DNA of 64,000 nt from Escherichia coli (lineage in GTDB: Bacteria; Pseudomonadota; Gammaproteobacteria; Enterobacterales; Enterobacteriaceae). Location: the NCBI RefSeq assembly GCF_002854065.1, contig NZ_CP024147.1; one strand, given 5' to 3'. Below are positions 5,527 to 64,000 of the stretch, in pieces (the first letter of the stretch is position 1; every line of letters starts with the position of its first letter). The position numbers and the translations under genes are program-made. Below the pieces are notes generated by a model. That model made no database searches, was not told where the DNA came from, and was given only the letters and a program-made list of their open reading frames with translations.

Positions 5527-7340
<1,814 letters not shown>

Positions 7341-8171: not shown

Positions 8172-8193
8172 CGAATAATCAGAGGGATCGAAA

Positions 8194-10500: not shown

Positions 10501-10535
10501 CCCCGATTAATAAAGAATGAAAAAAGGATATCACC

Positions 10536-11327
10536 ATGCCTGAAGGCCCGGAGATCCGCCGTGCAGCGGATAACCTGGAGGCGGCGATCAAAGGCAAACC
10601 ACTAACTGATGTCTGGTTTGCCTTCCCGCAGTTAAAAACTTATCAATCACAACTTATCGGTCAACACGTTACCCATGTGGAAACGCGTGGTAAGGCGTTG
10701 TTAACTCATTTTTCCAACGACTTAACGCTCTACAGCCATAATCAGCTTTATGGCGTCTGGCGCGTGGTTGATACCGGCGAAGAGTCGCAGACCACGCGAG
10801 TATTGCGGGTAAAACTGCAAACGGCTGACAAAACCATTCTGCTTTATAGTGCCTCGGATATTGAGATGTTGACCCCGGAACAACTGACCACGCATCCGTT
10901 TTTACAACGCGTTGGTCCCGATGTGCTGGATCCGAATCTGACGCCGGAGGTGGTAAAGGAACGATTATTGTCGCCGCGCTTTCGTAACCGTCAGTTTGCT
11001 GGATTACTGCTCGATCAGGCGTTTCTGGCAGGACTTGGCAATTATTTGCGGGTGGAGATCCTCTGGCAGGTTGGGTTGACTGGAAATCATAAAGCGAAAG
11101 ACCTCAATGCGGCGCAACTGGATGCACTCGCACACGCGTTACTGGATATTCCTCGGTTTTCTTACGCTACGCGGGGGCAGGTGGATGAGAATAAGCATCA
11201 TGGGGCGCTGTTTCGCTTTAAGGTTTTTCATCGTGATGGCGAACTGTGCGAACGCTGTGGCGGCATCATTGAGAAAACCACGCTGTCATCTCGCCCGTTT
11301 TACTGGTGTCCGGGCTGCCAGCACTAG
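10536..11327 (+). CDS. nei: Endonuclease VIII (DNA glycosylase/AP lyase)
   Basis: 263-aa ORF; N-terminal MPEGPEIRR (Fpg/Nei catalytic Pro2-Glu3) and C-terminal zinc finger CxxC…CxxC. Confidence 0.95.
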
Positions 11328-12370
11328 GCCGTACGTTTCGGCGCATAGGTTGAAATAAACCGCGCAATGGCAGGCCCTGTCAGCAAAATACTGAACAGGC
11401 GCAGGGTTTGCATCGCCATAATGAGCGCCATATTGGCATTGCTCCCTGCGGCGATGACCGCCACGGTATCAAGCCCGCCGGGGCTGGTGGCGAGGTAGGC
11501 AGTCATAAAATCAATGTGCATAAACCGGGTCAGTCCCCACGCCATACCCGCACAAATAGCCAGCAGAGCAAAAATCGACAGCAGGATTTGTGGTAGCGGG
11601 CGTAGTGCCCGCAGTAAGATTTGTTTATCGAAACCAAGACCAATCCGCCAGCCAATTGCCATATACGCCATCGCCAGCAGCCATTCCGGTAGTTCGATGG
11701 TGATGAGCTGACCAGACTGGAGCACTGCGCCCGCCAGCATCGGGATGAGCATCGTGCCGGAAGGAAGACGCAGCAAGCATCCCACTGTACCGGCAACGAC
11801 CGCGAGCAAAATAGTAAGCAGGAGATTAATGCTCACTGGCGGGAACCAGACGATATGCTGGTTAACCGCTTCAGCGTTATCGCCCAGCATCATTCGCGTG
11901 ACCAGAACTGCGGCCCCCGCGACAAACAGCACTCGCAGATACTGCATAAACGCCACCAGGCGGATATCTGCGCCGTAATCCTGCGCCATCGCGACCATTG
12001 CCGCCGCCCCGCCAGGCGAGGAGCCCCAGGCACCAGTATTTCCGGGCAGTGAGCTATAGCGCACCAGTAGCCATCCCACGATAGCGCTGGAAAGCAACGT
12101 CACCAGTAAAATAGCTAACACAATCGGCCAGTTAACCGCCAGCGTGGTCAGGATCGAGCCGGTCAAATTTTGCGCAATCATGCAGCCAAGAATGGCCTGC
12201 GCGGCGAGAAAAGCGGAGCGGGGGAGTTGCAGGGTAACCCCGCGCATACTGAAGATGATCCCGGCGATCATCGGCCCAAGTAATAATGCCGCCGGGAGAT
12301 GTACCGCGAGGAAACCAATAGAAAGGAGAAGTGATAGCACACATAACATTCCCCACTGCAAAACTGGCAT
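11324..12370 (-). CDS. abrB: AbrB-family putative membrane regulator/transporter (YbgN)
   Basis: Polytopic membrane ORF; synteny; start chosen at MPVLQWGM (the ORF track begins five codons earlier), so the exact start is uncertain. Confidence 0.8.
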
Positions 12371-12518
12371 CCTTTGCTCCCTCATTATTTACTCTTTGGT
12401 GTATCGATACAGCATAAAGAATGCCGGGCATGGAAAAAATAACGGTAATCAATAAAAGCCGGAAAATTGGCAATTAACCGAAGAAGCCCTCTCCGGCTGG
12501 AAAGGGCAATAGGCTAAA

Positions 12519-13580
12519 TCAGTTGTAGTTAATTTTGAAAAGTACCACTGTATCAAAGGGACCAACGTCGATGGGCGTACCCGGCGTGGATGACAATTCT
12601 GCCGTGTAGGTTTTTTCATACACTAACAGGTCGCTGGTAAAATCGGCATACTCACTGTATTTGTTGAAAGTATAGGGTGAGGCATTTTCATCCAACAATC
12701 GAAGCTTCAGGCCATTGCCAATGAGCAGTGATTTATCTTCGTCGATAAGGGTTTCATCGGTATAAAACGAAGAGCTGACTTTAAAACCGTCGGTACACTG
12801 GTCGTTTTGTGATTTGGTTGTAGTTATTTTAAATTGCTGCGACATCGTATGGCGACGAATATCCAGCACGTTAAATCGGCCAAAATCAACGACCTGGGTT
12901 TCAGGTGAGATAGCAAAGTTGACGCTGCAATCCAGCACGCGGATATTTTCCAGACCGGTAATGTGATATTTCAGATTCTTCGCGGTAGGGTCTTCGTTCA
13001 CGCTGCCTGCGCCATCAAACTGTACGACGATGTAATCGCTGAGTTTGCTCTGATAACCATGGGGCGGCATGGCGCGAACTTTAACGTAAAGCCGCATACG
13101 CGCCACAAACGTCCGCGATTTGTGCATAACGGTTGGATCGCCGGAGCAAAGTTTATTTTGCCAGCCCATCGCAATGATCTGCTCCGGGGTGTAAATATCA
13201 ATATTCTTACTGTCGATGCACTGATTCGTGTCGATGCGGCTTTTCCCAAGGCTTGCGTCATAGTCCACGCCTTCATAGGTTACGCCCAATTGATAATAGG
13301 GATCCTGAATACCGGGGTAAGGGTTTACCCAGGCGTAGACGTGCTCGCTTTCAAAATTACCGTTTGTGTTGTTGTCACAGTAGACCGGAATTTTTATATC
13401 GTCAGATTCCCAGATTTTATCGCCGGGTTTGGAATTGGCCGGAACGGCGAAGGGCATAATAGCTTCTGATTTTTCTACAGCGCCGTTTGCGGTACCAAAA
13501 TAGCAGTTCAGCGCCAGCGCCGCTTTTAGCGGCAAAAAAATCAGACAGATGGCGAGCAACACGCCTTTGGCGAATCTCAT
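12519..13580 (-). CDS. ybgO: Fimbrial adhesin-like protein
   Basis: 353-aa ORF with signal peptide, last gene of a chaperone-usher cluster. Confidence 0.8.
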
Positions 13581-14308
13581 TTTTTATTCTCCACCGGCTG
13601 CAGGCGGCATTGCCGCTGGCAGGAGAGCGTGTTCATACGCAATGCGCCGTAGTCGTCCATGTAGCCAAGATAAAACTGCTTGCCGCTATAGCTGCCCGTG
13701 CTGGTGGTGACCGAACTGAACGGTGCGACCATCGTGCTTTTAAAGCCAGGCAGCACGCCTTTCTCATCCCGCCCAAGATAGGCAATAGTCAGATAGTATC
13801 CGGTCGGGTTTTTCAGGGTAAGCTGGTTATTCTGCTGGCTAACCTGTAGCTGTTGCTCAACATGATCGCCCATTTTTTTGCGTAATGCGGCGGGTCGCCA
13901 GAATAGCTTAATGCGACTTTGGACGGCGACTTGCAGGATCGCATGGCCCTCGCTGCCTTCCGGGACAGGCGGAATTTCACGCAGGTTATAGTAAAAGAGA
14001 GATTCGCGATCGGTGGGTAATTTCGCGGTGGCGGCTTGTTTCATGATCCGAACCTGCGAAGCCGCTTTTGGCTCCAGTCGCTGGATAGGCGGCAGGGCGA
14101 CGAGAAATTCATCGCTTTTCTCTCCCTTTTCATTTTCTATCCATGAATAGGCGAGGTAGGGGAGTTTATCGCTGCGGTTTTCCACGCGCAGGCTGGTTGC
14201 TTTATCTTTGCTATTAAAGATGATGCGCGTGCGGTCAGGCTGCACTGCGCCGTGGCTGCACATACTGGCAACCAGAAGAATCAAAGGGAATCCTTTAACA
14301 AATGTCAT
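13577..14308 (-). CDS. ybgP: Periplasmic fimbrial chaperone (PapD-like)
   Basis: 243-aa ORF with signal peptide; overlaps ybgO; chaperone-usher synteny. Confidence 0.85.
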
Positions 14309-14322
14309 CGTCTTTTCCTTAA

Positions 14323-16782
14323 TTAATGACAGGGTAAAATCAGGCGCTTAGTCACATCTTCCAGATGTTCCGGCAGATGAATGGCACACGTTTTCTGGTC
14401 GCCCCAGTGCACGGTAAATTGTTGATTTTCATCGACCCCACTCAGCCATGCGTGACCGTTTTCGCCAACCATCCCGACGCTGACACCGCCTTCAGCCTGG
14501 CGAACATCGGCACCGAGCGGCGGGAAATGCCCGTTAGCATCGCTGATAATGACGTTGAGATCTTTCCCGGCGCGGGACGCCAGCGATTTAAAGCCGATGG
14601 CGCCTTCGGTCCAGGTTTCTTTCACCACGTTTTCGGAAACGGTAACGCCGTCAGGCAAGTCGTTCATATTGACCGCCACCGTCGTAGGCTGGTAGCTGGA
14701 AACAAACGGTACCACGGCAATACCAAAGCGGTTGGTGTAGTCAATATTGCCCTGAATCGGAATATCGCCCACGCCGTCGGTGCTGACCATCAGGCGTGGT
14801 TCATTGGTGGAACTGCGGCGATGGAATGCCGCGCCATGTTGAGTCGCGGTAAACGAGCCGCTCCAACTGGCACTGGCGGAAGTGTAATCATTGGCGGCAT
14901 AGGTTCCGGTCAAATCCCATTCCCCCGCCGAACTGAGGTGTTGGTAATTGCCGCTGACCTGCGCACCGTTATCCGGGCGATCGGATTGTATTCCAGCCGA
15001 CATTCCCCAACTGTTTCGTTCATCCAGGGTATCGTTCCACGACATGCGGTGGGTGGTAGTATTACTGTTGTTCTGCATGTCATAACCCAGTCGACCACTT
15101 TCCCCAATCGGTAAGGAGATCGAAAAGTAAATCTGGTTGTCGCGATCTTTATCTTCATAATGGGTGGTGTTGAACGAGGTCGAGACAGAAATATCTTTCC
15201 AGTCGCCAATGTCGACGTTAAAACCGGCGGTAATGTTGGCCGTGGTGGAGGTATCCGCATTCCACCAGCTCTGATGCAGGATGTTGGCGTAGAGATTAAG
15301 ATTCAGCGGAGTAATAGGCTGACCGAAGGAGAGGCTGATGGTTTGCTTTTCATCCTGCGCGTCGGCGTCATTGTATTTGTGATCAATGTAGTTAGCGTAG
15401 CTGTGAAAATGGCGATCGGAGAAGCGATAGGCTGCCAATGAGATGGTGCTGTTGGTCGCATCAACCTGTTTGCTGTAGTTAAAGCGGTAGCTGTAACCCT
15501 GCTCATCCTGTTGAGTATCAAAATGGCTGTCGGCCCAGGTCACGTCAAACGACAGCGCCCCCAGCCAGAGCATATTTTGCCCAATACCCAGCGCGCCGGA
15601 ACGATAGTCATCGCCTGCGAGAAGCATGCCGCCATATAGTGAAGTGTTGGAGAGCATCCCCCAGGAGACTTCATGGCTAATGAAGGTTTCATCCTCGGTG
15701 TGGTGCGACATAGAGGAACGCGGGCGACCGGCAGCCAGTTTATAGCGCACCTGGCCCTGACGCGTCAGGAACGGGGTAGAGGCCGCTGAAACCTGGAAGT
15801 TATTCACCCGTCCATCTTCTTCGCTCACTTTGACATCCAGTGTACCTTGCACTGACTGATTCAGGTCATCAATAATAAATGGGCCTGGCGGAACTTTTTT
15901 CTGGTAAATCACGCGACCAGAATGGCTTATCGTGACCGTGGCGTTAGTCTGTGCGATGCCGCTGATTTGCGGCGCGTAGCCGCGTAACTCCCAGGGGAGC
16001 ATTCGATCGTCGCTGGCTAACGCCGCACCGGTATAGGAGAAACCATCAAAAATGTTAGAGCTAAAATCGGTTTCGCCCAGGGTTAATCGGGAACCTATTT
16101 GCGGTAACGGGCGGAACAGGTAGGTCCGTGAAATCGCCCCGGATTGTTCACGGTTGTCGCCGCTATCGGACTGGCTAAGCTGATAATCGCTGCGCAGACG
16201 CCATGCCCCGGCGTTGAGGCCCGTGGTGCCATAGGCGTTCAGGTTGTTGCTGCTGCTGCCGCTTTGTGGGCGATAAGTGCTGGCAAACAGGTTGTAATCC
16301 ATCAGGAAGCCAGGAATACCGTTATTCCACGTTGAGGGTGGCGTCCAGTTTTCTGAATGCCACGCCAGCCATGCCTGCGGGATTGTAATATTGAGCTGTT
16401 GATTTGCCTGATCGAAAGTAAAGATGATTTCAGGGAAGACACTAAAATCGACACATTCTTTTATTGCAGGTAATTTTTTACGAAAGTCAGATTTAAGTCC
16501 GAAGAGTTCGATCAGCGATTCATTGATACAAGGAATAATTTTATCGCCAGATTTTTGCCAGCGAATTTGTTGCCCATTACTGATTTTATTATTATTAACC
16601 GTAACACTAACAAAGTAATCGCCGGGAGCTACGACGCCTTTTTGATTGAGCAACGAAATATCAACGCTATCCCGAATCGACTTATCGAGAACGTTAAGGT
16701 TAAATTCAGCTGTCAGCGCAGGAGGGGTTACCATTGCCAGACAGGAAAGAACAGAGAGTCGATAAATATTCACGGCATCCAT
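14323..16782 (-). CDS. ybgQ: Outer-membrane fimbrial usher
   Basis: 819-aa ORF, size and position typical of ushers; exact start uncertain. Confidence 0.85.
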   Translation of the reverse strand: MDAVNIYRLSVLSCLAMVTPPALTAEFNLNVLDKSIRDSVDISLLNQKGVVAPGDYFVSVTVNNNKISNGQQIRWQKSGDKIIPCINESLIELFGLKSDFRKKLPAIKECVDFSVFPEIIFTFDQANQQLNITIPQAWLAWHSENWTPPSTWNNGIPGFLMDYNLFASTYRPQSGSSSNNLNAYGTTGLNAGAWRLRSDYQLSQSDSGDNREQSGAISRTYLFRPLPQIGSRLTLGETDFSSNIFDGFSYTGAALASDDRMLPWELRGYAPQISGIAQTNATVTISHSGRVIYQKKVPPGPFIIDDLNQSVQGTLDVKVSEEDGRVNNFQVSAASTPFLTRQGQVRYKLAAGRPRSSMSHHTEDETFISHEVSWGMLSNTSLYGGMLLAGDDYRSGALGIGQNMLWLGALSFDVTWADSHFDTQQDEQGYSYRFNYSKQVDATNSTISLAAYRFSDRHFHSYANYIDHKYNDADAQDEKQTISLSFGQPITPLNLNLYANILHQSWWNADTSTTANITAGFNVDIGDWKDISVSTSFNTTHYEDKDRDNQIYFSISLPIGESGRLGYDMQNNSNTTTHRMSWNDTLDERNSWGMSAGIQSDRPDNGAQVSGNYQHLSSAGEWDLTGTYAANDYTSASASWSGSFTATQHGAAFHRRSSTNEPRLMVSTDGVGDIPIQGNIDYTNRFGIAVVPFVSSYQPTTVAVNMNDLPDGVTVSENVVKETWTEGAIGFKSLASRAGKDLNVIISDANGHFPPLGADVRQAEGGVSVGMVGENGHAWLSGVDENQQFTVHWGDQKTCAIHLPEHLEDVTKRLILPCH

Positions 16783-16831
16783 ACCTGAACAATATTCGCA
16801 AAAGGCGGCTAATCAGCCGCCTTAAAAAGGA

Positions 16832-17398
16832 TTATTGGTAATCCAGAACGTAAGTTGCGTTAGCAGTAACGGCCCCCGCGGTAACCGAAACTGCGTTATC
16901 CATCTGTTCCATCCAGGCAAAGAAGTTTAACGTTTGTTCTGTTGAACTTGCCAATAAGTCAATTGTTGGCGCTTCTGTTCCCAATACAACAAATGATTCA
17001 TCTTTGTTCATGAGACGTACGCCAACGCCGGTAGCCTCGCCAGCACTGATGTTACTAAGGAGCGGCGTTGCACCTGTCGTTTTAGCTGTGCTGTCGAAGG
17101 TCACGCCTACCTTTGAGACCACGCCACCGTTGCCATCATCCCAGCCTGCAATATCACAGTTGATTAAGCGAATATTGACAGGTTTTTTCTCGCTATGATG
17201 TTCTCGATTTATGTGGGATGTGGTTACTTCACCCAGGTCAATGTTCATATCAAGGTCATCAGGGTGAATTTCACAAGGTGCTTCAATAACTTCACCTTTA
17301 AAGTGGATTTCACCAGATCCTTCATCTGCAGCAAAAACAGGTGAAGCGAATAGTAGAGATATGGCCAGGGCGGCCAGTGTTTTTTGTCCTTTAAACAT
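16832..17398 (-). CDS. ybgD: Fimbrial major subunit
   Basis: About 188 aa with signal peptide (…LLFASPVFAA); first gene of the ybgDQPO cluster. Confidence 0.8.
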   Translation of the reverse strand: MFKGQKTLAALAISLLFASPVFAADEGSGEIHFKGEVIEAPCEIHPDDLDMNIDLGEVTTSHINREHHSEKKPVNIRLINCDIAGWDDGNGGVVSKVGVTFDSTAKTTGATPLLSNISAGEATGVGVRLMNKDESFVVLGTEAPTIDLLASSTEQTLNFFAWMEQMDNAVSVTAGAVTANATYVLDYQ

Positions 17399-17723
17399 AC
17401 ATGAATCCTTCATGGGCTATGATAAAGTATACTAATTATTCCGACAGAATAGTGGTTTTTTGTTCATGTAATAATATTAATGTTGCTACATTATGTTTGA
17501 GAGTTTCTCAAAGCTCTCGAATCATAAATAAAGTGAATTAATCCTATTACGAGTTTATTTAATTGTGGGTGCTACCCAATGTATTCTACATCGATTGGCG
17601 GGATAACGGTGGTGGTGAATGAAAAATTAGGATTTTATTTAGTTATCGGATATGTATTCTTGTAACGTGTAATTATGTATTTGTGTCCGATTACGTTTTT
17701 TTGTCGATAGACATAACTAACGA

Positions 17724-17759
17724 ACAAAAAAAAGCCCGCCAGATATTCAGGCGGGCTAA
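17724..17759 (-). terminator. Rho-independent terminator downstream of gltA
   Basis: Minus-strand hairpin gcccgcctgaatatctggcgggc followed by a T-run. Confidence 0.7.
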
Positions 17760-17784
17760 ACGATATATGGTTCAAATCAGATAA

Positions 17785-19068: not shown

Positions 19069-19776
19069 TTAAGGTCTCCTTAGCGCCTTATTGCGTAAGA
19101 CTGCCGGAACTTAAATTTGCCTTCGCACATCAACCTGGCTTTACCCGTTTGTTATTTGGCTCGCCGCTCTGTGAAAGAGGGGAAAACCTGGGTACAGAGC
19201 TCTGGGCGCTTGCAGGTAAAGGATCCATTGATGACGAATAAATGGCGAATCAAGTACTTAGCAATCCGAATTATTAAACTTGTCTACCACTAATAACTGT
19301 CCCGAATGAATTGGTCAATACTTCCACACTGTTACATAAGTTAATCTTAGGTGAAATACCGACTTCATAACTTTTACGCATTATATGCTTTTCCTGGTAA
19401 TGTTTGTAACAACTTTGTTGAATGATTGTCAAATTAGATGATTAAAAATTAAATAAATGTTGTTATCGTGACCTGGATCACTGTTCAGGATAAAACCCGA
19501 CAAACTATATGTAGGTTAATTGTAATGATTTTGTGAACAGCCTATACTGCCGCCAGGTCTCCGGAACACCCTGCAATCCCGAGCCACCCAGCGTTGTAAC
19601 GTGTCGTTTTCGCATCTGGAAGCAGTGTTTTGCATGACGCGCAGTTATAGAAAGGACGCTGTCTGACCCGCAAGCAGACCGGAGGAAGGAAATCCCGACG
19701 TCTCCAGGTAACAGAAAGTTAACCTCTGTGCCCGTAGTCCCCAGGGAATAATAAGAACAGCATGTGGGCGTTATTC

Positions 19777-27339: not shown

Positions 27340-27344
27340 TAGTT

Positions 27345-27545
27345 TAAGTTTCACCTGCACTGTAGACCGGATAAGACATTATCGCCTTCTCCGGCAATTG
27401 AAGCCTGATGCGACGCTGAACGCGTCTTATCAGGCCTACGGGAAGCACCGATGTAGGTCGGATAAGGCGCTCGCGCCGCATCCGACAAGCGATGCCAGAT
27501 GCGACGCTTGCGCGTCTTATCAGGCCTACGGGTGACCGACAATAC
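27345..27545. repeat. REP/BIME elements between sucB and sucC
   Basis: Multiple copies of the gcctgatgcgacgc / gtaggcctgataagacgcg palindromic unit. Confidence 0.8.
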
Positions 27546-30316: not shown

Positions 30317-30418
30317 ATGCGAGGGAAAATACCTAAAACGGAACTGCTGGTGACTTTTGAGGTCGTCGCACGTCATGAAAGTTATACCAGAGCGGCAGAG
30401 GAGTTAGCGTTAACCCGG
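30317..30418 (+). pseudogene. LysR-type transcriptional regulator, N-terminal 34 codons only, truncated by IS1
   Basis: MRGKIPKTELLVTFEVVARHESYTRAAEELALTR resembles the LysR winged-HTH start; the reading frame runs into the IS1 terminus and stops on IS1 sequence. Confidence 0.6.
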
Positions 30419-30431
30419 TAATGACTCCAAC

Positions 30432-30935
30432 TTATTGATAGTGTTTTATGTTCAGATAATGCCCGATGACTTTGTCATGCAGCTCCACCGATTTTGAGAA
30501 CGACAGCGACTTCCGTCCCAGCCGTGCCAGGTGCTGCCTCAGATTCAGGTTATGCCGCTCAATTCGCTGCGTATATCGCTTGCTGATTACGTGCAGCTTT
30601 CCCTTCAGGCGGGATTCATACAGCGGCCAGCCATCCGTCATCCATATCACCACGTCAAAGGGTGACAGCAGGCTCATAAGACGCCCCAGCGTCGCCATAG
30701 TGCGTTCACCGAATACGTGCGCAACAACCGTCTTCCGGAGCCTGTCATACGCGTAAAACAGCCAGCGCTGGCGCGATTTAGCCCCGACGTATCCCCACTG
30801 TTCGTCCATTTCCGCGCAGACGATGACGTCACTGCCCGGCTGTATGCGCGAGGTTACCGACTGCGGCCTGAGTTTTTTAAATGGCGGAAAATCGTGTTGA
30901 GGCCAACGCCCATAATGCGGGCGGTTGCCCGGCAT
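30432..30935 (-). CDS. insB: IS1 InsB (C-terminal transposase domain, expressed as InsAB' by -1 frameshift)
   Basis: 167-aa ORF …[47 protein letters not shown]… matches IS1 InsB. Confidence 0.95.
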
Positions 30936-31129
30936 CCAACGCCATTCATGGCCATATCAATGATTTTCTGGTGCGTACCGGGTTGAGAAGCGGTGTAAGT
31001 GAACTGCAGTTGCCATGTTTTACGGCAGTGAGAGCAGAGATAGCGCTGATGTCCGGCAGTGCTTTTGCCGTTACGCACCACCCCGTCAGTAGCTGAACAG
31101 GAGGGACAGCTGATAGAAACAGAAGCCAC
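30854..31129 (-). CDS. insA: IS1 InsA (transposition inhibitor / N-terminal part of the InsAB' transposase)
   Basis: 91-aa [46 protein letters not shown]… matches IS1 InsA. Confidence 0.95.
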
Positions 31130-31184
31130 TGGAGCACCTCAAAAACACCATCATACACTAAATCAGTAAGTTGGCAGCATCACC

Positions 31185-31655
31185 CACCACGATTTGCAAA
31201 ATTTCATTGTGCGCCATGGCATCGACAATGCTGGTGGGGAAAGCATGCGAAATAAATACTTTTAGCGTAAAGGGTTCTGCCGCGACCACTCCGGTGGTTT
31301 CGGCACCGTGTGCAACAAAATTAATTCCTGTACCTGGCATGAAGAAATTTACCGTTATCAAGCCTAAGGCAATTGACAGCAATGAGGCGCAAATAAATAA
31401 AAAGAGTGTTTTAGAAAAAATACGACCAAGGGCTTTGGCATCGCCCATTTTAGCAATACCTACCACCAGGGTAGAGACCACTAACGGAGCGATAATCATT
31501 TTTATCAGTCGTAAGAAAATCGTCGTGAATATCGATATTTCTTGCGCATAGAGTTTTGCGGTTTCCGGTGAAGCAGTGTTATTGAGCACTACGCCGATAA
31601 TCATTCCAAGTACCAGCGCCAAAAGAATCATCGTGGTTAAACTTATTTTCTTCAT
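31185..31655 (-). pseudogene. Glutamate/dicarboxylate:cation symporter (DAACS family, GltP/DctA-like), N-terminal ~157 codons, 3'-truncated by IS1
   Basis: IFLRLIKMIIAPLVVSTLVVGIAKMGDAKALGRIFSKTL… aligns with the GltP N-terminal region; GGAGG RBS before ATG at 31655; the ORF continues into IS1, where it terminates. Confidence 0.8.
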
Positions 31656-38046: not shown

Positions 38047-38592
38047 GGGTAATCCTTTGTAAGACAGAGAGTAAAATAAGTTACACACGTCGTATTTATG
38101 GCCGTTCATAACGGCACAGGTTTAATATCACAGGAGTGTCTTTATCTGACCGTAATGTTGCAATTGATCTATTTTCAAAATGTCTTTCGGGAAATGATTG
38201 TTTAAAGTGTGTTTTTAAATTCCCATGTTAATTCAGTATGTTATGTCAACTAATGTCATGAATGTTAAATTTTTAAAATTAACTTGATTTAATGTATTGA
38301 GATAATTGTGATCTACTTCTAATTTGCATTTTAGTGATATGGGTTTAGCCATGAGTAAATGCATTTCATAAAATTTAAGTCGAATTTCACTGCAATTCAT
38401 CTCTGCTTAATGTAAAAATAATGTTGAAAATAACAAATGGTTAATGATTCATGCGAATTATGACGTTAGTTAGCTCTTTTGATTTTTCGTAAAAAAGAGA
38501 GGTACATGAAGGTGCTACCAGTATGAGTAACGTTAATCAAAGGTTTTATTACGTCTGGCAATAACGCAGGCCATTTTCGCGACTGGGTGGAT

Positions 38593-39015
38593 TTAATCAG
38601 TATAATCCTCATACAATATTTCAGGATTAACTGAACCGTTAACCGGGTTTTGGTGTTGAAATTTAGAAATGGCGGAGTCAATCAATGAAGACAGTATCGA
38701 AAAAATAACTGTGTCAGAACTAATTTCAATTAATCCTTCTCGTTGTTGACCAAAAAAGATATTTATCTTGATTTCATTTGTACTACGGCAATCAATATGT
38801 AGTAATTTTTGATCGCTGAGATTTTCTGTTTCATAAATGTTTTTGGCGATAGTCGGATGTATTGATGCCAGACATCTGCTCAGATAAGCCAGATCCTTTA
38901 GGGAACACCCCGCTGAGTAGAGGATGTCAGAGAATTTTTGTGTGTCAACTGTTGTCTCTGAAGCGTATGTTGCATTGACAGGAAGGGTGTTGAAAGAGAT
39001 TTGAGATGGGATCAT
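38593..39015 (-). CDS. Hypothetical acidic protein (140 aa) in AT-rich segment
   Basis: ORF in a strongly AT-rich region; no recognisable motif. Confidence 0.5.
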   Translation of the reverse strand: MIPSQISFNTLPVNATYASETTVDTQKFSDILYSAGCSLKDLAYLSRCLASIHPTIAKNIYETENLSDQKLLHIDCRSTNEIKINIFFGQQREGLIEISSDTVIFSILSSLIDSAISKFQHQNPVNGSVNPEILYEDYTD

Positions 39016-39096
39016 TATTTAAATCTTTCCGTGAGTAATAAAAATTAATCCCCAGGCATTGTTTAACAATATTTGCCATAGGGGATATATAGAAAA

Positions 39097-40041
39097 TTAA
39101 AGTATTTTATTGGCTTCGGTTAACTGATCTATAACCAGTGCCAGATTGGTAAACATTTTGAAAAAGCGATACTGGCTCGGAATATCTCTTTCAAAGACGA
39201 AACATTCAAGGTCATTGTTTGAAAAATAAAGGACTAGTGTTGCTGATTCGTCAGGGAAAACATGGAAATGTATCTGGTTACCAGAAGGAGGATAGTCCAG
39301 AAGAAGGGTATCTTTGCCCGTCACATACCTGTTGTTGTCGTGGACGCTACGCTCACACTTCATCAGAGGTGTCAGGATACTCATGTATTCATCTGATGTT
39401 AATTTATTAAAATCATCATTCATTTTAAAGAAACGATAAAGTAACAGTACATCCTCTTGCGTAACCGGTTCGTTTGTTTTTAGAGGGAAATAAGCGGGAA
39501 CCAGAAGATGAGGTTCTAATCTATTTTGTTGAGCGCTATAACTGAATTTGAACATAAATTCCGGATCGCTCATCAATTGAGCGACATAATTATGCCTGGC
39601 TTCGAAAATTTTAATTTTTATCAGGTTAAATAAGTCTGTTTCGTCATCCTGTATTAAAAGACATTGGCCATAGCAGCCAGGCTTTTTTTCATTATAAGCA
39701 GAAACGGTTATTCTGTCAGAGGTGTCAACGTTATATTCAAAAGCCAGATAGTGACCTTCTTCATCGCGATTTGTTTCCAGGTTATTTAAATTCATCACAT
39801 GAAGTGTTTGCAATGCTGATTCAATGAGCTGTTGACTCTCTGAGGTAAATGTTTCGCGCTGCGTTGTATAAAGTGTATCAATTCCAACGACTATCCGATG
39901 TGGGTCAAGGATGGCGGCAATCATCTTTATTACCTGCACAGTCACGGGTGATGTCATTGATTCTTTATCTGTTTTTAGAGAATCATTAGATGGCCAACCT
40001 GAGAAGCGATTGACAGCCGAACCGATATTATCAGGACTCAT
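39097..40041 (-). CDS. Hypothetical protein (314 aa) in AT-rich segment
   Basis: ORF with Ser/Asn/Pro-rich N-terminus, no transmembrane segments, no recognisable catalytic motif; co-directional with the 140-aa ORF. Confidence 0.55.
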   Translation of the reverse strand: MSPDNIGSAVNRFSGWPSNDSLKTDKESMTSPVTVQVIKMIAAILDPHRIVVGIDTLYTTQRETFTSESQQLIESALQTLHVMNLNNLETNRDEEGHYLAFEYNVDTSDRITVSAYNEKKPGCYGQCLLIQDDETDLFNLIKIKIFEARHNYVAQLMSDPEFMFKFSYSAQQNRLEPHLLVPAYFPLKTNEPVTQEDVLLLYRFFKMNDDFNKLTSDEYMSILTPLMKCERSVHDNNRYVTGKDTLLLDYPPSGNQIHFHVFPDESATLVLYFSNNDLECFVFERDIPSQYRFFKMFTNLALVIDQLTEANKIL

Positions 40042-40547
40042 AGCAGCAACCTCATTGTAATCAAGCGAGGCGCTGAGCGTACTCGGCTATAGAAAAACTA
40101 ACTTGCAAAAATCGCTCATTTTTCATTTATCAGGCGAAAGTGGTCTCTGTACACTCAGAAACAATCACTCCCGCTAAGTCATACCTGTTTCATCGATACA
40201 TTTAAGTGATTATTACTAATGAAACAATAACATAACGGGCTTACGGTCGGTGCTCATAAAGGCAACAATCAATTAACTTTGATAAAAATATGTTATGTAA
40301 AATAGCAACAAATTGGCTACTCTAATCAATTGGTATTATAAAAAGTGGATAAGGCGGTTCTGTTAAATAAAATACTGGTTTTTTATCTATACCTTTTCAT
40401 TGTAATAATTGTGTTGCATAAATATTTCACAATAAATTAACAATAAAATCACCAATGATCTATGGTTTATACATAATTAACATATTTGGTTGGTTTTGAT
40501 ATAAATCAATTTTTAATTCTTGAAAAAAATCTGCAAAACACGATAAA

Positions 40548-40561
40548 TTGTCGTAGATCAA
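40548..40561. promoter_or_regulatory. Putative FNR/CRP-family site in the cydA upstream region
   Basis: ttgtcgtagatcaa matches TTGAT-N4-ATCAA with one mismatch; cydAB is known to be FNR/ArcA-regulated. Confidence 0.3.
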
Positions 40562-40846
40562 ATTGATGAGATCGTGACAATTTCGCTATAAATTGATCAC
40601 TGTCGAAAAATGCAAATTTGCTCAATAAAAACCTGTTTATTGTAAGGATTTTGCGGCGTAATATAATTACGGGATCAATTTGGTTTATTCATTAACATAT
40701 TTGTAACTTTTTTATCATTGTCTTTTCCTCTTTTGATGAAATGGCAACGATAGGGGCGAGCAAATAATTTTGTATTGGGGCATGCGTGTGACCCTTTCTA
40801 ACGGGGTTCACTCTCGGAGTCTTCATGCGATGAGCAAGGAGTCATG

Positions 40847-42415
40847 ATGTTAGATATAGTCGAACTGTCGCGCTTACAGTTTGCCTTGACCGCGATGTAC
40901 CACTTCCTTTTTGTGCCACTGACGCTCGGTATGGCGTTCCTGCTGGCCATTATGGAAACGGTCTACGTCCTTTCCGGCAAACAGATTTATAAAGATATGA
41001 CCAAGTTCTGGGGCAAGTTGTTTGGTATCAACTTCGCTCTGGGTGTGGCTACCGGTCTGACCATGGAGTTCCAGTTCGGGACTAACTGGTCTTACTATTC
41101 CCACTATGTAGGGGATATCTTCGGTGCGCCGCTGGCAATCGAAGGTCTGATGGCCTTCTTCCTCGAATCCACCTTTGTAGGTCTGTTCTTCTTCGGTTGG
41201 GATCGTCTGGGTAAAGTTCAGCATATGTGTGTCACCTGGCTGGTGGCGCTCGGTTCAAACCTGTCCGCGCTGTGGATTCTGGTTGCAAACGGCTGGATGC
41301 AAAACCCAATCGCGTCCGATTTCAACTTTGAAACTATGCGTATGGAGATGGTGAGCTTCTCCGAGCTGGTGCTTAACCCGGTTGCTCAGGTGAAATTCGT
41401 TCACACTGTAGCGTCTGGTTATGTGACTGGCGCGATGTTCATCCTCGGTATCAGCGCATGGTATATGCTGAAAGGTCGTGACTTCGCCTTCGCTAAACGC
41501 TCCTTTGCTATCGCTGCCAGCTTCGGTATGGCTGCCGTTCTGTCTGTTATTGTTCTGGGTGATGAATCCGGCTACGAAATGGGCGACGTGCAGAAAACCA
41601 AACTGGCTGCTATTGAAGCTGAGTGGGAAACGCAACCTGCGCCTGCTGCCTTTACTCTGTTCGGCATTCCTGATCAGGAAGAGGAGACGAACAAATTTGC
41701 GATCCAGATCCCTTACGCGCTGGGCATCATTGCAACGCGTTCCGTGGATACTCCAGTTATCGGCCTGAAAGAACTGATGGTGCAGCATGAAGAACGCATT
41801 CGTAACGGGATGAAGGCGTACTCTCTGCTCGAGCAACTGCGTTCTGGTTCTACCGACCAGGCGGTTCGTGACCAGTTCAACAGCATGAAGAAAGACCTCG
41901 GTTACGGTCTGCTGCTGAAACGCTATACGCCAAACGTGGCTGATGCGACTGAAGCGCAGATTCAACAGGCAACCAAAGACTCCATTCCGCGTGTAGCGCC
42001 GCTGTACTTCGCGTTCCGTATCATGGTGGCGTGTGGCTTCCTGCTGCTGGCAATCATCGCGCTCTCTTTCTGGAGTGTCATCCGCAACCGCATTGGCGAG
42101 AAAAAATGGCTCCTGCGCGCCGCGCTGTACGGTATTCCGCTGCCGTGGATTGCTGTAGAAGCGGGCTGGTTCGTGGCTGAATATGGCCGCCAACCGTGGG
42201 CTATCGGTGAAGTGCTGCCGACAGCTGTGGCGAACTCGTCACTGACCGCAGGCGATCTCATCTTCTCAATGGTGCTGATTTGCGGCCTGTATACCCTGTT
42301 CCTGGTGGCAGAATTGTTCTTAATGTTCAAGTTTGCACGCCTCGGCCCAAGCAGCCTGAAAACCGGTCGCTATCACTTTGAGCAGTCTTCCACGACTACT
42401 CAGCCGGCACGCTAA
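40847..42415 (+). CDS. cydA: Cytochrome bd-I ubiquinol oxidase subunit I
   Basis: 522 aa from [28 protein letters not shown]. Confidence 0.97.
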
Positions 42416-42430: not shown

Positions 42431-43570
42431 ATGATCGATTATGAAGTATTGCGTTTTATCTGGTGGCTGCTGGTTGGCGTTCTGCTGATTGGTTTTGCAG
42501 TCACTGACGGTTTCGACATGGGGGTGGGCATGCTCACCCGTTTCCTCGGTCGTAACGACACCGAGCGTCGAATTATGATTAACTCCATCGCACCACACTG
42601 GGACGGTAACCAGGTTTGGCTGATCACCGCAGGCGGCGCACTGTTTGCTGCCTGGCCGATGGTCTATGCCGCTGCGTTTTCCGGCTTCTATGTGGCGATG
42701 ATCCTCGTGCTGGCGTCTTTGTTCTTCCGTCCGGTCGGTTTTGACTACCGCTCCAAGATTGAAGAAACCCGCTGGCGTAACATGTGGGACTGGGGCATCT
42801 TCATTGGTAGCTTCGTTCCGCCGCTGGTGATTGGTGTAGCGTTCGGTAACCTGTTGCAGGGCGTACCGTTCAACGTTGATGAATATCTGCGTCTGTACTA
42901 CACCGGTAACTTCTTCCAGTTGCTTAACCCGTTCGGCCTGCTGGCAGGCGTGGTGAGCGTAGGGATGATCATTACTCAGGGCGCGACTTATCTGCAGATG
43001 CGTACCGTGGGCGAACTGCACCTGCGTACCCGTGCAACGGCTCAGGTGGCGGCACTGGTGACACTGGTCTGCTTCGCACTAGCTGGCGTATGGGTGATGT
43101 ACGGTATCGATGGTTATGTCGTGAAATCGACAATGGACCATTACGCAGCCTCTAACCCGCTGAATAAAGAAGTGGTTCGTGAAGCTGGCGCATGGCTGGT
43201 TAACTTCAACAACACGCCAATTCTGTGGGCTATTCCGGCACTGGGTGTGGTTCTGCCGCTGCTGACCATCCTGACTGCACGTATGGATAAAGCCGCGTGG
43301 GCGTTTGTGTTCTCCTCCCTGACGCTGGCCTGCATCATCCTGACTGCCGGTATCGCAATGTTCCCGTTTGTGATGCCGTCCAGCACCATGATGAACGCAA
43401 GTCTGACAATGTGGGATGCAACTTCCAGCCAGCTGACACTTAACGTCATGACTTGGGTTGCGGTGGTTCTGGTACCGATCATTCTGCTCTACACCGCCTG
43501 GTGTTACTGGAAAATGTTCGGTCGTATCACCAAAGAAGATATTGAACGTAACACCCACTCTCTGTACTAA
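42431..43570 (+). CDS. cydB: Cytochrome bd-I ubiquinol oxidase subunit II
   Basis: 379-aa hydrophobic ORF immediately after cydA. Confidence 0.97.
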   Translation: MIDYEVLRFIWWLLVGVLLIGFAVTDGFDMGVGMLTRFLGRNDTERRIMINSIAPHWDGNQVWLITAGGALFAAWPMVYAAAFSGFYVAMILVLASLFFRPVGFDYRSKIEETRWRNMWDWGIFIGSFVPPLVIGVAFGNLLQGVPFNVDEYLRLYYTGNFFQLLNPFGLLAGVVSVGMIITQGATYLQMRTVGELHLRTRATAQVAALVTLVCFALAGVWVMYGIDGYVVKSTMDHYAASNPLNKEVVREAGAWLVNFNNTPILWAIPALGVVLPLLTILTARMDKAAWAFVFSSLTLACIILTAGIAMFPFVMPSSTMMNASLTMWDATSSQLTLNVMTWVAVVLVPIILLYTAWCYWKMFGRITKEDIERNTHSLY

Positions 43571-43584
43571 GTAAGGAGCTAAAA

Positions 43585-43698
43585 ATGTGGTATTTCGCAT
43601 GGATTCTGGGAACGCTTCTTGCCTGTTCGTTTGGGGTAATCACCGCGCTGGCGCTTGAGCACGTCGAATCAGGCAAAGCCGGTCAAGAAGACATCTGA
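43585..43698 (+). CDS. cydX: Cytochrome bd-I small subunit CydX (37 aa)
   Basis: Short ORF MWYFAWILGTLLACSFGVITALALEHVESGKAGQEDI with RBS aaggag; not in the ORF track because under 60 aa. Confidence 0.9.
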   Translation: MWYFAWILGTLLACSFGVITALALEHVESGKAGQEDI

Positions 43699-43991
43699 TG
43701 AGTAAGATTATCGCAACCTTGTATGCGGTAATGGACAAGCGCCCCCTGCGGGCGCTTTCCTTCGTGATGGCGCTTCTGTTAGCAGGATGTATGTTTTGGG
43801 ACCCATCTCGTTTTGCCGCGAAGACCAGTGAACTGGAAATCTGGCATGGTTTATTGCTGATGTGGGCCGTCTGTGCTGGTGTGATTCACGGCGTGGGCTT
43901 TCGTCCGCAGAAGGTTCTTTGGCAAGGGATTTTTTGCCCATTGCTTGCCGATATTGTTCTCATTGTCGGGCTGATTTTCTTCTTCTTTTAA
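43698..43991 (+). CDS. ybgE: Inner membrane protein YbgE
   Basis: 97-aa hydrophobic ORF overlapping the cydX stop. Confidence 0.85.
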   Translation: MSKIIATLYAVMDKRPLRALSFVMALLLAGCMFWDPSRFAAKTSELEIWHGLLLMWAVCAGVIHGVGFRPQKVLWQGIFCPLLADIVLIVGLIFFFF

Positions 43992-44007
43992 ATCAGAATT
44001 CTCTTTA

Positions 44008-44040
44008 AAAAATTATGGGCCGCTCCAGGCCCATAAATTT
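44008..44040 (+). terminator. Rho-independent terminator after ybgE
   Basis: Hairpin ttatgggccgctccaggcccataa followed by a T-run. Confidence 0.6.
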
Positions 44041-44140
44041 TTACGCTCCCTTAACTTGCCCTCATTCCCAAACCTCAATCGCGCGCGTATAGTAGCAGCG
44101 TTTAAAAGCTCTAACTTTTGTTGCATTACCGGGATGTAAA

Positions 44141-45730: not shown

Positions 45731-47026
45731 GTGTCAAAGGCAACCGAACAAAACGACAAGCTCAAGCGGGCGATAATTATTTCAGCAGTGCTGCATGTCA
45801 TCTTATTTGCGGCGCTGATCTGGAGTTCGTTCGATGAGAATATAGAAGCTTCAGCTGGAGGCGGCGGTGGTTCGTCCATCGACGCTGTCATGGTTGATTC
45901 AGGTGCGGTAGTTGAGCAGTACAAACGCATGCAAAGCCAGGAATCAAGCGCGAAGCGTTCTGATGAGCAGCGCAAGATGAAGGAACAGCAGGCTGCTGAA
46001 GAACTGCGTGAGAAACAAGCGGCTGAACAGGAACGCCTGAAGCAACTTGAGAAAGAGCGGTTAGCTGCTCAGGAACAGAAAAAGCAGGCTGAAGAAGCCG
46101 CAAAACAGGCCGAGTTAAAGCAGAAGCAAGCGGAAGAGGCGGCAGCGAAAGCGGCGGCAGATGCTAAAGCGAAGGCCGAAGCGGATGCTAAAGCTGCGGA
46201 AGATGCAGCGAAGAAAGCGGCTGCAGATGCGAAGAAAAAAGCAGAAGCAGAAGCCGCCAAAGCCGCAGCCGAAGCGCAGAAAAAAACCGAGGCAGCAGCT
46301 GCGGCGCTGAAGAAGAAAGCGGAAGCGGCAGAAGCAGCTGCAGCTGAAGCAAGAAAGAAAGCGGCAACTGAAGCTGCTGAAAAAGCCAAGGCAGAAGCTG
46401 AGAAGAAAGCGGCTGCTGAAAAGGCTGCAGCTGATAAGAAAGCGGCAGCAGAGAAAGCTGCAGCCGACAAAAAAGCAGCAGAAAAAGCGGCTGCAGAAAA
46501 GGCAGCAGCTGATAAGAAAGCAGCGGCAGAAAAAGCCGCCGCAGACAAAAAAGCGGCAGCTGCAAAAGCAGCAGCTGCAAAAGCAGCAGCTGCAAAAGCA
46601 GCAGCTGAAAAAGCCGCTGCAGCAAAAGCTGCCGCAGAGGCAGATGATATTTTCGGTGAGCTAAGCTCTGGTAAGAATGCACCGAAAACGGGGGGAGGGG
46701 CGAAAGGGAACAATGCTTCGCCTGCCGGGAGTGGTAATACTAAAAACAATGGCGCATCAGGGGCCGATATCAATAACTATGCCGGGCAGATTAAATCTGC
46801 TATCGAAAGTAAGTTCTATGACGCATCGTCCTATGCAGGCAAAACCTGTACGCTGCGCATAAAACTGGCACCCGATGGTATGTTACTGGATATCAAACCT
46901 GAAGGTGGCGATCCCGCACTTTGTCAGGCTGCGTTGGCAGCAGCTAAACTTGCGAAGATCCCGAAACCACCAAGCCAGGCAGTATATGAAGTGTTCAAAA
47001 ACGCGCCATTGGACTTCAAACCGTAA
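45731..47026 (+). CDS. tolA: Tol-Pal system protein TolA (GTG start)
   Basis: 431-aa ORF; N-terminal anchor, long Ala/Lys/Glu-rich helical repeat domain, C-terminal domain. Confidence 0.95.
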   Translation: MSKATEQNDKLKRAIIISAVLHVILFAALIWSSFDENIEASAGGGGGSSIDAVMVDSGAVVEQYKRMQSQESSAKRSDEQRKMKEQQAAEELREKQAAEQERLKQLEKERLAAQEQKKQAEEAAKQAELKQKQAEEAAAKAAADAKAKAEADAKAAEDAAKKAAADAKKKAEAEAAKAAAEAQKKTEAAAAALKKKAEAAEAAAAEARKKAATEAAEKAKAEAEKKAAAEKAAADKKAAAEKAAADKKAAEKAAAEKAAADKKAAAEKAAADKKAAAAKAAAAKAAAAKAAAEKAAAAKAAAEADDIFGELSSGKNAPKTGGGAKGNNASPAGSGNTKNNGASGADINNYAGQIKSAIESKFYDASSYAGKTCTLRIKLAPDGMLLDIKPEGGDPALCQAALAAAKLAKIPKPPSQAVYEVFKNAPLDFKP

Positions 47027-48461: not shown

Positions 48462-49007
<546 letters not shown>

Positions 49008-49016
49008 GAGAATTGC

Positions 49017-49808
49017 ATGAGCAGTAACTTCAGACATCAACTATTGAGTCTGTCGTTACTGGTTGGTATAGCGGCCCCCTGGGCCGCTTTTGCTCAGGCA
49101 CCAATCAGTAGTGTCGGCTCAGGCTCGGTCGAAGACCGCGTCACTCAACTTGAGCGTATTTCTAATGCTCACAGCCAGCTTTTAACCCAACTCCAGCAAC
49201 AACTCTCTGATAATCAATCCGATATTGATTCCCTGCGTGGTCAGATTCAGGAAAATCAGTATCAACTGAATCAGGTCGTGGAGCGGCAAAAGCAGATCCT
49301 GTTGCAGATCGACAGCCTCAGCAGCGGTGGTGCAGCGGCGCAATCAACCAGCGGTGATCAAAGCGGTGCGGCGGCATCAACGACGCCGACAGCTGATGCT
49401 GGTACTGCGAATGCTGGCGCGCCGGTGAAAAGCGGTGATGCAAACACGGATTACAATGCAGCTATTGCGCTGGTGCAGGATAAATCCCGCCAGGATGACG
49501 CAATGGTGGCATTTCAGAATTTCATCAAAAATTACCCTGATTCAACTTACCTGCCAAACGCCAATTATTGGCTGGGTCAGTTAAACTACAACAAGGGTAA
49601 AAAAGATGATGCGGCGTACTATTTTGCTTCGGTAGTGAAAAACTATCCGAAGTCACCAAAGGCTGCAGATGCGATGTTTAAAGTCGGTGTCATCATGCAG
49701 GACAAAGGTGACACCGCAAAAGCGAAAGCCGTATACCAGCAGGTTATCAGTAAATACCCTGGTACTGATGGCGCTAAACAGGCACAAAAACGTCTGAACG
49801 CGATGTAA
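49017..49808 (+). CDS. cpoB: Cell division coordinator CpoB (YbgF; TPR protein)
   Basis: 263-aa ORF with signal peptide, coiled coil and TPR region; last gene of the tol-pal cluster. Confidence 0.95.
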   Translation: MSSNFRHQLLSLSLLVGIAAPWAAFAQAPISSVGSGSVEDRVTQLERISNAHSQLLTQLQQQLSDNQSDIDSLRGQIQENQYQLNQVVERQKQILLQIDSLSSGGAAAQSTSGDQSGAAASTTPTADAGTANAGAPVKSGDANTDYNAAIALVQDKSRQDDAMVAFQNFIKNYPDSTYLPNANYWLGQLNYNKGKKDDAAYYFASVVKNYPKSPKAADAMFKVGVIMQDKGDTAKAKAVYQQVISKYPGTDGAKQAQKRLNAM

Positions 49809-49972: not shown

Positions 49973-50048
49973 GGGTCGTTAGCTCAGTTGGTAGAGCAGT
50001 TGACTTTTAATCAATTGGTCGCAGGTTCGAATCCTGCACGACCCACCA
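49973..50048 (+). tRNA. lysT: tRNA-Lys (anticodon UUU)
   Basis: 76-nt GGGTCGTTAGCTCAGTTGGTAGAGC…CTTTTAATC…GGTTCGAATCCTGCACGACCCACCA. Confidence 0.97.
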
Positions 50049-50083
50049 CTAACCTAGTTAGTTGTAGTATCCAGCGTAGTATC

Positions 50084-50159
50084 GGGTGATTAGCTCAGCT
50101 GGGAGAGCACCTCCCTTACAAGGAGGGGGTCGGCGGTTCGATCCCGTCATCACCCACCA
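50084..50159 (+). tRNA. valT: tRNA-Val (anticodon UAC)
   Basis: 76-nt GGGTGATTAGCTCAGCTGGGAGAGC…CCTTACAAGG…GGTTCGATCCCGTCATCACCCACCA. Confidence 0.97.
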
Positions 50160-50161
50160 CC

Positions 50162-50237
50162 GGGTCGTTAGCTCAGTTGGTAGAGCAGTTGACTTTTAAT
50201 CAATTGGTCGCAGGTTCGAATCCTGCACGACCCACCA
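50162..50237 (+). tRNA. lysW: tRNA-Lys (anticodon UUU)
   Basis: Identical to the first tRNA-Lys copy. Confidence 0.97.
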
Positions 50238-50288
50238 CTAATTACGGTGGGTTCGGTGGAAGTAGTTTGTAGTATCCAGCGCAGTATC

Positions 50289-50364
50289 GGGTGATTAGCT
50301 CAGCTGGGAGAGCACCTCCCTTACAAGGAGGGGGTCGGCGGTTCGAACCCGTCATCACCCACCA
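50289..50364 (+). tRNA. valZ: tRNA-Val (anticodon UAC)
   Basis: As valT, with a T-arm variant (GGTTCGAACCC). Confidence 0.97.
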
Positions 50365-50367
50365 CTC

Positions 50368-50443
50368 GGGTCGTTAGCTCAGTTGGTAGAGCAGTTGACT
50401 TTTAATCAATTGGTCGCAGGTTCGAATCCTGCACGACCCACCA
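50368..50443 (+). tRNA. lysY: tRNA-Lys (anticodon UUU)
   Basis: Identical tRNA-Lys copy. Confidence 0.97.
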
Positions 50444-50589
50444 GTTTTAACATCAAACTCAGATGTTAAGCGTGAAGGATAACGTTGCGCCAGCAACGGC
50501 CCGTAGGGCGAGCGAAGCGAGTCATCCTGCACGACCCACCAATCTTAAAGATTGGCCCCGAGTAAAAATCTTTCAGGTAACACCCGTAT

Positions 50590-50665
50590 GGGTCGTTAGC
50601 TCAGTTGGTAGAGCAGTTGACTTTTAATCAATTGGTCGCAGGTTCGAATCCTGCACGACCCACCA
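50590..50665 (+). tRNA. lysZ: tRNA-Lys (anticodon UUU)
   Basis: Identical tRNA-Lys copy. Confidence 0.97.
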
Positions 50666-50698
50666 TCCTGAATGATTAAAGCAGCATAATCCCGCAAG

Positions 50699-50774
50699 GG
50701 GTCGTTAGCTCAGTTGGTAGAGCAGTTGACTTTTAATCAATTGGTCGCAGGTTCGAATCCTGCACGACCCACCA
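50699..50774 (+). tRNA. lysQ: tRNA-Lys (anticodon UUU)
   Basis: Identical tRNA-Lys copy, followed by a terminator. Confidence 0.97.
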
Positions 50775-50778
50775 ATGT

Positions 50779-50808
50779 AAAAAAGCGCCCTAAAGGCGCT
50801 TTTTTGCT
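50779..50808 (+). terminator. Rho-independent terminator of the tRNA operon
   Basis: aaaaaagcgccctaaaggcgcttttttgct; a second copy lies at 50935–50965. Confidence 0.8.
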
Positions 50809-51117
50809 ATCTGCGATACTCAAAGATTCGAACCTGCAGCAGGTTTGAGTTGAGCGTAGCGAAACAACGGAGCCGCTCGCGGCGACGGCCCGAAGGGCGA
50901 GCGAAGCGAGTCATCCTGCACGACCCACCAATGTAAAAAAGCGCCCTAAAGGCGCTTTTTTGCTATTCAGGCATCTCTCAATTTCAATTCTTGACCCTGA
51001 TGACATACTTCGCGCTTGCTGCGTAAACAACTTTACGTCGGAGGAATAAGACGCAAAGTGTGGCATTCGGCATCTCATACGTAATTCGAGTGACTTTTCC
51101 CCACCATTCGACTATCT

Positions 51118-51135
51118 TGTTTAGCATATAAAACA
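51118..51135. promoter_or_regulatory. Putative NadR operator upstream of nadA
   Basis: Palindrome tgtttagcatataaaaca (TGTTTA-N6-TAAACA type). Confidence 0.5.
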
Positions 51136-61290: not shown

Positions 61291-61429
61291 TAAGTGATTA
61301 TAAAACAGAGGGTTTATGAATGATTGCGCTTTTTATCTGAAAAAAAGACGCGGTTTCATGCCTGCATGTGTCGAACCGTTGGCCGGAGAGGGCGCTTAGG
61401 CCGCCTCCGGCAAGGTCAGCACTACCGAC

Positions 61430-63758: not shown

Positions 63759-63868
63759 AACAATGTCCTGGCAAAAGTCTTATTGTGACGGAAAACGAAC
63801 GCCACGCAAAGCTGACCGCACAAAAGGGGAGTGCTTTTCTGTGCTTAGCGGTTAGAATAGTCTCATGA

Positions 63869-64000
<132 letters not shown>

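Follow-up and report, generated by a model that had tools for sequence, protein, structure and literature searches.

The DNA analyzed here, a 64-kb segment of the Escherichia coli chromosome (hereafter, the window) that extends from an Rhs element to acrZ, carries on its plus strand the genes of the cytochrome bd-I oxidase: cydA (40847..42415), encoding subunit I, the packing partner of CydX; cydB (42431..43570), encoding subunit II; and cydX (43585..43698), encoding the single-helix small subunit. The last gene of the operon, ybgE (43698..43991; PF09600, NF007881), is followed by an intrinsic terminator-like hairpin with a 9-bp stem and a T-run (44013..44044, plus strand) at the end of the cydABX-ybgE unit. 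The cydX ORF consists of 37 codons and a TGA stop, with the start ATG at 43585-43587 and the stop at 43696-43698, and is translated into the 37-aa peptide MWYFAWILGTLLACSFGVITALALEHVESGKAGQEDI. The gap between the cydB stop codon (43568-43570) and the cydX ATG is 14 nt, and within it lies the Shine-Dalgarno sequence AAGGAG (43573..43578, plus strand), located 6 nt before the ATG, with a duplex energy of -8.4 kcal/mol, the 54 annotated genes in the window having a median of -5.8. At the other end, the final A of the cydX TGA is the first base of the ybgE ATG (43698-43700), forming the overlap TGATG. A preliminary description of this DNA had placed a 37-aa cydX between cydB and ybgE, with a good ribosome-binding site and a TGATG overlap with the ybgE start, and each of these elements was recovered here, the ORF running from ATG to TGA at precisely the positions given there, the motif being AAGGAG with a 6-nt spacer, and the overlap amounting to one shared base.

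Between cydB, cydX, and ybgE, no terminator-like sites were detected, the first one downstream being the hairpin after ybgE, and cydA, cydB, cydX, and ybgE are predicted to form one transcription unit. Within this unit, cydX would be translated from its own strong Shine-Dalgarno sequence. The Shine-Dalgarno sequence of ybgE is weak (-2.4) and its start codon lies inside the cydX stop, so that translation of ybgE is probably coupled to termination at cydX. At the head of the operon, cydA opens with tandem ATGATG (40844-40849): the list of predicted ORFs starts the gene at 40844 (523 aa), and RefSeq starts it at 40847 (522 aa), the latter start having the better-spaced Shine-Dalgarno sequence (-8.0 vs -4.5).

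Identification of cydX and acrZ in the window

The cydX product is 100% identical, over all 37 residues, to chain X of PDB entry 6RKO, described as "Cytochrome bd-I ubiquinol oxidase subunit X", and the same protein sequence recurs in nine PDB entries in all (6RKO, 6RX4, and seven others). It also scores above the cut-offs of the Pfam family PF08173 (YbgT_YccB; 53.9 bits, cut-off 26.2) and of the NCBIfam equivalog TIGR02106 (70.7 bits, cut-off 31.6). The gene is called cydX in the annotations of both K-12 (b4515) and the E. coli strain CUWW06 (WP_000270282.1). Compared to K-12 CydX (YbgT), there is no difference at the protein level, nor is there one in the position after cydB, the Shine-Dalgarno sequence, or the overlap with ybgE; the 144 nt flanking cydX are 99.3% identical to K-12. 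Given the identity to the resolved chain, the cydX product would be a physical subunit of the cytochrome bd-I complex.

CydX consists of one transmembrane helix that contacts CydA transmembrane helices 1, 4, 5, 6, and 7 (PMC8951039). It carries an acidic tail and is required for cytochrome bd-I, a high-affinity quinol:O2 oxidase, to assemble, to be stable, and to be active (PMC4325964, PMC8951039).

The second small gene, acrZ, lies at the very end of the window (63887..64000, plus strand), where the first 38 of 49 codons of this AcrB-binding small membrane protein are present (114 nt, with the ATG at 63887-63889). The Shine-Dalgarno core GGAG (63877..63880, plus strand) is located 6 nt before the ATG (energy -5.9). 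The preliminary description correctly had acrZ running off the window but set its start at 63888, one base off. The encoded fragment is identical to residues 1-38 of chain C of PDB entry 4C48 and to chains in six further entries. Its closest known counterpart is K-12 AcrZ (YbhT, b0762), from which it differs in ending at codon 38. The fragment scores 85.6 bits against PF10766 (cut-off 26.2), covering model positions 1-38 of 48. Because the window ends at codon 38, the last 11 codons and the stop are known only from near-identical genomes; acrZ is annotated as a 150-nt gene in both CUWW06 and K-12 (b0762). Its placement is also that found in K-12, downstream of, and divergent from, modE.

The acrZ promoter may be co-regulated with acrAB via a MarA/Rob/SoxS box. 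Using a marbox-like consensus and allowing up to 2 mismatches, we found no match upstream of acrZ (63759-63886), and the same consensus produced 20 matches in the whole window vs 16.5 expected, that is, no enrichment. Identity to the AcrB-AcrZ structures (4C48, 4CDI, 5NC5, 6SGR, 6SGS) suggests that the product encoded here would bind the transmembrane domain of AcrB. AcrZ, a 49-aa protein with a single helix, attaches to the efflux pump AcrB at its membrane domain and allosterically tunes the export of some drugs, chloramphenicol among them; together with cardiolipin, it alters the drug-binding pocket of AcrB allosterically, and cells without AcrZ are more sensitive to chloramphenicol (PMC7267776).

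Taken together, we consider it practically certain that the ORF at 43585-43698 is cydX, which stands third in the cydA-cydB-cydX-ybgE operon, and that the ORF at 63887 is acrZ. No observation made here speaks against either identification. The gene names used in the preliminary description are therefore correct, as judged by PDB identity, family HMMs, and the K-12 annotation. Both are known small proteins that are annotated already in public near-identical genomes.

The genome nearest to the window is that of strain CUWW06 (NZ_CP182139.1), which is colinear with it and 99.9-100% identical, except that IS1 is placed differently, with a loss of ~4 kb, and that tolA and the lysine/valine tRNA cluster differ slightly. 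The IS1 element (30417-31193) lies 345 bp further right than in CUWW06, and 4,021 bp are gone (region 30317-31655), so that cobO and a class I fumarate hydratase are absent, along with the remainder of a LysR regulator and the greater part of a dicarboxylate symporter. The tolA gene (45731-47026, plus strand) is 1,296 nt long in the window vs 1,281 nt in CUWW06 and 1,266 nt in K-12, a variation that presumably sits in the repetitive central domain. At 50811-50912, the window is ~100 bp longer than CUWW06; Rfam matches within 49973-50930 comprise seven tRNA genes and two RtT repeats (50375-50541 and 50805-50930). Another Rfam match, to the CpoB/ybgF thermometer (142 bits), spans the pal-cpoB junction at 48908-49046.

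The K-12 MG1655 equivalent of the window lies at about 738.9-794.9 kb; a methylaspartate/glutamate-mutase cluster and two AT-rich hypothetical genes stand where K-12 has mngR-mngA-mngB. The 14 kb from ybgA to ybgD (3496-17410) are 90.2% identical to K-12, compared to about 98-99% in the rest of the shared window, which suggests a recombined or divergent segment; the adjoining ybgD-gltA spacer (17411-17783) does not align to K-12. At the left end of the window (1-2810), the 3' portion of a gene for an RHS repeat core protein, with 64% G+C in the first 2 kb, is followed by a small putative immunity-type ORF (2807-3100). A SymE-family type I toxin gene (3144-3473, minus strand) adjoins the Rhs element and contains, on the opposite strand, an Rfam match to the Hfq-binding sRNA isrA (3274-3402, plus strand; 112.9 bits).

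Comparison of cydX-like loci and the nature of the ORF

For the comparative analysis, a degenerate DNA pattern for MWYFAWILG, the first 9 codons of cydX, was scanned against one genome per species (100,044 species). The scan yielded at least 120 cydX-like loci from alpha-, beta-, and gamma-proteobacteria, in agreement with a published survey in which CydX occurred across all three (PMC4325964). Among the matches listed, the ORF is 32-56 codons long in all 119 complete cases, most of the ORFs are preceded by an AGGAG-type motif, and a cydB homologue is located directly upstream in 114 of the 116 loci for which sufficient upstream sequence was available, with a median cydB-to-cydX gap of 12-14 nt. 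The first 9 residues are fixed by the search pattern and provide no independent evidence; codons 10-30 were left free by it. Across these codons in the 119 ORFs among the matches listed, the entropy is 1.66 bits at third positions vs 1.15 at first and 0.92 at second positions. Within the same aligned set, A13 is present in 119/119 and E25 in 117/119 of the ORFs, and the tail is variable and acidic (33% D+E vs 13% K+R). The product from the window has the N-terminal hydrophobic helix, the conserved MWYFAWILG start, A13, E25, and the acidic variable tail that characterize CydX. Such variation points to a protein-coding gene under purifying selection.

The arrangement of cydX relative to ybgE is less uniform. 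A ybgE homologue was found downstream of the cydX-like ORF in 35 loci among the matches listed; the stop and start codons overlap by 1 nt in 17 of these, an ATGA-type overlap occurs in 2, and 16 have no overlap. The overlap being present in some loci only, coupling of ybgE to cydX appears plausible in Enterobacteriaceae and is not universal.

Could the 37-codon ORF be a chance frame in the cydB-ybgE spacer, with AAGGAG serving some other role, for example, as a ribosome-loading site for ybgE? Chance ORFs are indeed plentiful, with 79 ORFs of at least 20 aa overlapping the 5 kb between 40000 and 45000, and shuffled intergenic DNA has Shine-Dalgarno-like motifs ahead of short ORFs no less often; the length of 37 codons is not in itself significant. 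All the same, of the intergenic ORFs in the window with 30 codons or more, cydX alone combines an ATG or GTG start with a Shine-Dalgarno energy of -6 or better. More to the point, a chance frame would not match, residue for residue, a chain seen in nine PDB entries for the purified oxidase, nor pass curated family models, and it would not recur as a 32-56-codon ORF after cydB in 114/116 of the loci among the matches listed, in three proteobacterial classes, with variation biased to third positions. This reading, to which we assign next to no probability, is already refuted. Nor do we give any credence to the ORF being the bd-II paralogue AppX/CbdX (YccB) instead of the bd-I subunit. The two proteins are homologous single-helix subunits of the same Pfam family, AppX/CbdX binding AppC at a position equivalent to that of CydX (PMC8951039), and the cydX product does produce a weak match to the CbdX model NF011333 (E=1.3e-4). 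However, this match reaches 21.7 bits, far below the cut-off of 57, and the CydX equivalog is passed; moreover, AppX/CbdX belongs to the appCB operon, whereas the gene in the window follows cydAB, and its product is identical to chain X of the bd-I oxidase. The identification of the ORF as cydX is retained.

Short ORFs in the AT-rich segments

The preliminary description also proposed that functional small ORFs could be hidden elsewhere, especially in the AT-rich segments at 38100-38590 and 40040-40840. We therefore performed a small-ORF scan in which all start/stop pairs spanning 8-59 codons on either strand (3,129 pairs) were scored for Shine-Dalgarno pairing, with dinucleotide shuffles of the same intergenic DNA as the control. 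Among intergenic ORFs of at least 10 codons, 4 were observed at an energy of -6 or better vs 7.8 +/- 3.3 expected, and 18 at -4 or better vs 21.0 +/- 4.5 expected. Thus, Shine-Dalgarno-preceded intergenic ORFs are not enriched over the shuffles.

Five of the candidates were examined individually and rejected as genes: the ORF at 51060-51131 (plus strand), for which neither the GTG nor the Shine-Dalgarno sequence is conserved in K-12; the ORF at 61316-61399 (plus strand), which is frameshifted relative to K-12; a 9-codon ORF at 44005-44034 (minus strand), within the ybgE terminator hairpin; an ORF of 11 codons at 27344-27379 (minus strand), across the sucB stop; and the 34-codon ORF at 30317-30421 (plus strand), which keeps a good Shine-Dalgarno sequence and looks like a small gene but is the N-terminal stub of the LysR regulator cut by IS1.

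The first AT-rich segment (38047-38592) lies between glmS and the gene for a 140-aa hypothetical protein. Comparison of six E. coli strains that carry this island (96.8-100% identity) identified it as the most variable stretch of the island, with 7.1% variable sites. A 55-codon ORF on the minus strand (38233-38400) is intact in this comparison, and its changes are distributed evenly over the three codon positions (6/5/5), compared to 4/1/13 in glmS and 6/4/15 in the 140-aa gene. In 3 of 5 strains, a frameshift disrupts a 48-codon ORF on the same strand (38466-38612). The best Shine-Dalgarno energy of an ATG-started ORF in this segment is -3.9.

Beyond this segment, two AT-rich (35-37% GC) hypothetical genes encoding 140 and 314 aa (38593-40041, minus strand) lie between the glutamate-mutase cluster and cydA. 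Of 5,426 complete E. coli genomes, 1,134 carry the pair, O157:H7 included. Neither protein has a match in Pfam, NCBIfam, PADLOC, or PHROGs, and a tblastn search of phages and plasmids with the 314-aa protein retrieved no phage match, the only 'plasmid' matches being two records of ~4.9 Mb (evidently chromosomes) and one 730-kb E. coli record. These genes look like horizontally acquired orphans.

The second AT-rich segment (40042-40846) is the region upstream of cydA. The control region of cydA is long and multi-promoter, and is regulated by ArcA, FNR, and H-NS. K-12 shares the segment only from 40471 onward (376 bp), and the curated K-12 annotation contains no gene in this shared part. Within the segment, a hydrophobic 31-codon ORF (40345-40440, plus strand) is intact in the six strains, with 4 changes, none of them at a third position. 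Alignment of the cydA upstream regions from Citrobacter, Enterobacter, Superficieibacter, Pantoea-like, Yersinia, and Rahnella loci revealed conserved blocks at ~40556-40690 and 40775-40846, without codon periodicity. The latter block, in the cydA 5' UTR, contains a 21-codon uORF (ATG at 40782), the TGA of which overlaps the cydA ATG. Both the block and the uORF are the same, letter for letter, in E. coli, Citrobacter, and Superficieibacter; in-frame stops break the uORF at the loci of two related genera, and Pantoea, Yersinia, and Rahnella lack it. Because relatives break the uORF by stops, the conservation of 40775-40846 is probably at the RNA or regulatory level. In the literature, nothing relevant was found on a uORF or leader peptide of cydA.

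On balance, it is very unlikely that these two segments hide further functional small protein genes. Many short ORFs are present, including the intact frame at 38233-38400, the hydrophobic one at 40345-40440, and the uORF shared by E. coli, Citrobacter, and Superficieibacter, and even validated small genes in the window (ybgU and ybgV, described below) have weak Shine-Dalgarno sequences. Against these observations, there is no ATG-started ORF with a Shine-Dalgarno energy better than -4.5 in either segment, and base composition alone predicts hydrophobic frames in AT-rich DNA. Furthermore, 38047-38592 is the most variable part of the island, its 55-codon ORF has no codon-position bias, the 48-codon ORF is frameshifted in some strains, and the 31-codon ORF lacks third-position changes. 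The cydA uORF, in turn, is stopped or missing in relatives, K-12 has no gene in the shared 376 bp, and short ORFs are not enriched over shuffles. We conclude that both segments are regulatory or spacer DNA and contain no supported small gene; judged by ribosome-binding sites and conservation, this part of the preliminary proposal found no support. We see only the slimmest chance that a short frame from the cydA leader or the strain-specific AT-rich island is translated and plays a local regulatory role. The best candidate for such a role is the 21-codon uORF, which, in Escherichia, Citrobacter, and Superficieibacter only, could modulate how cydA is translated; the 55-codon ORF at 38233-38400 is a weaker candidate.

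Small genes in the gltA leader and the detection of small proteins

As a general statement, the proposal that small proteins are hidden elsewhere in the window stands, even though it found no support in the named AT-rich segments: two such genes, both missed in the preliminary description, lie in the gltA leader. One is ybgU (19274..19381, minus strand), which encodes a validated small protein of 35 aa that matches PF23495 (E=3.8e-29; 100.5 bits vs the cut-off of 27). The other, ybgV (19258..19290, minus strand), starts with GTG, encodes 10 aa (VVDKFNNSDC), and overlaps the 3' end of ybgU. Their sequences are identical to those of K-12 YbgU (b4735) and ybgV (b4768), which occupy the same place between gltA and sdhC; in CUWW06, ybgU is annotated as 'hypothetical protein'. 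In K-12, YbgU was detected by epitope tag (PMC6001520), and ybgV by ribosome profiling and tagging (10.1101/511675); ybgV has been given as a possible uORF of gltA (PMC7815308).

The Shine-Dalgarno energies of ybgU (-4.3) and ybgV (-4.0) are inside the noise, whereas that of cydX (-8.4) stands out. With ybgU and ybgV falling within the shuffle noise, scoring of ribosome-binding sites alone is powerless here.

The biological import of these identifications is small: CydX and AcrZ are among the best-characterized bacterial small proteins, with structures solved and phenotypes known. A 60-aa threshold for the display of ORFs nevertheless conceals four curated genes in 64 kb, namely, cydX, acrZ, ybgU, and ybgV, and finding such small genes takes homology, synteny, or ribosome profiling.
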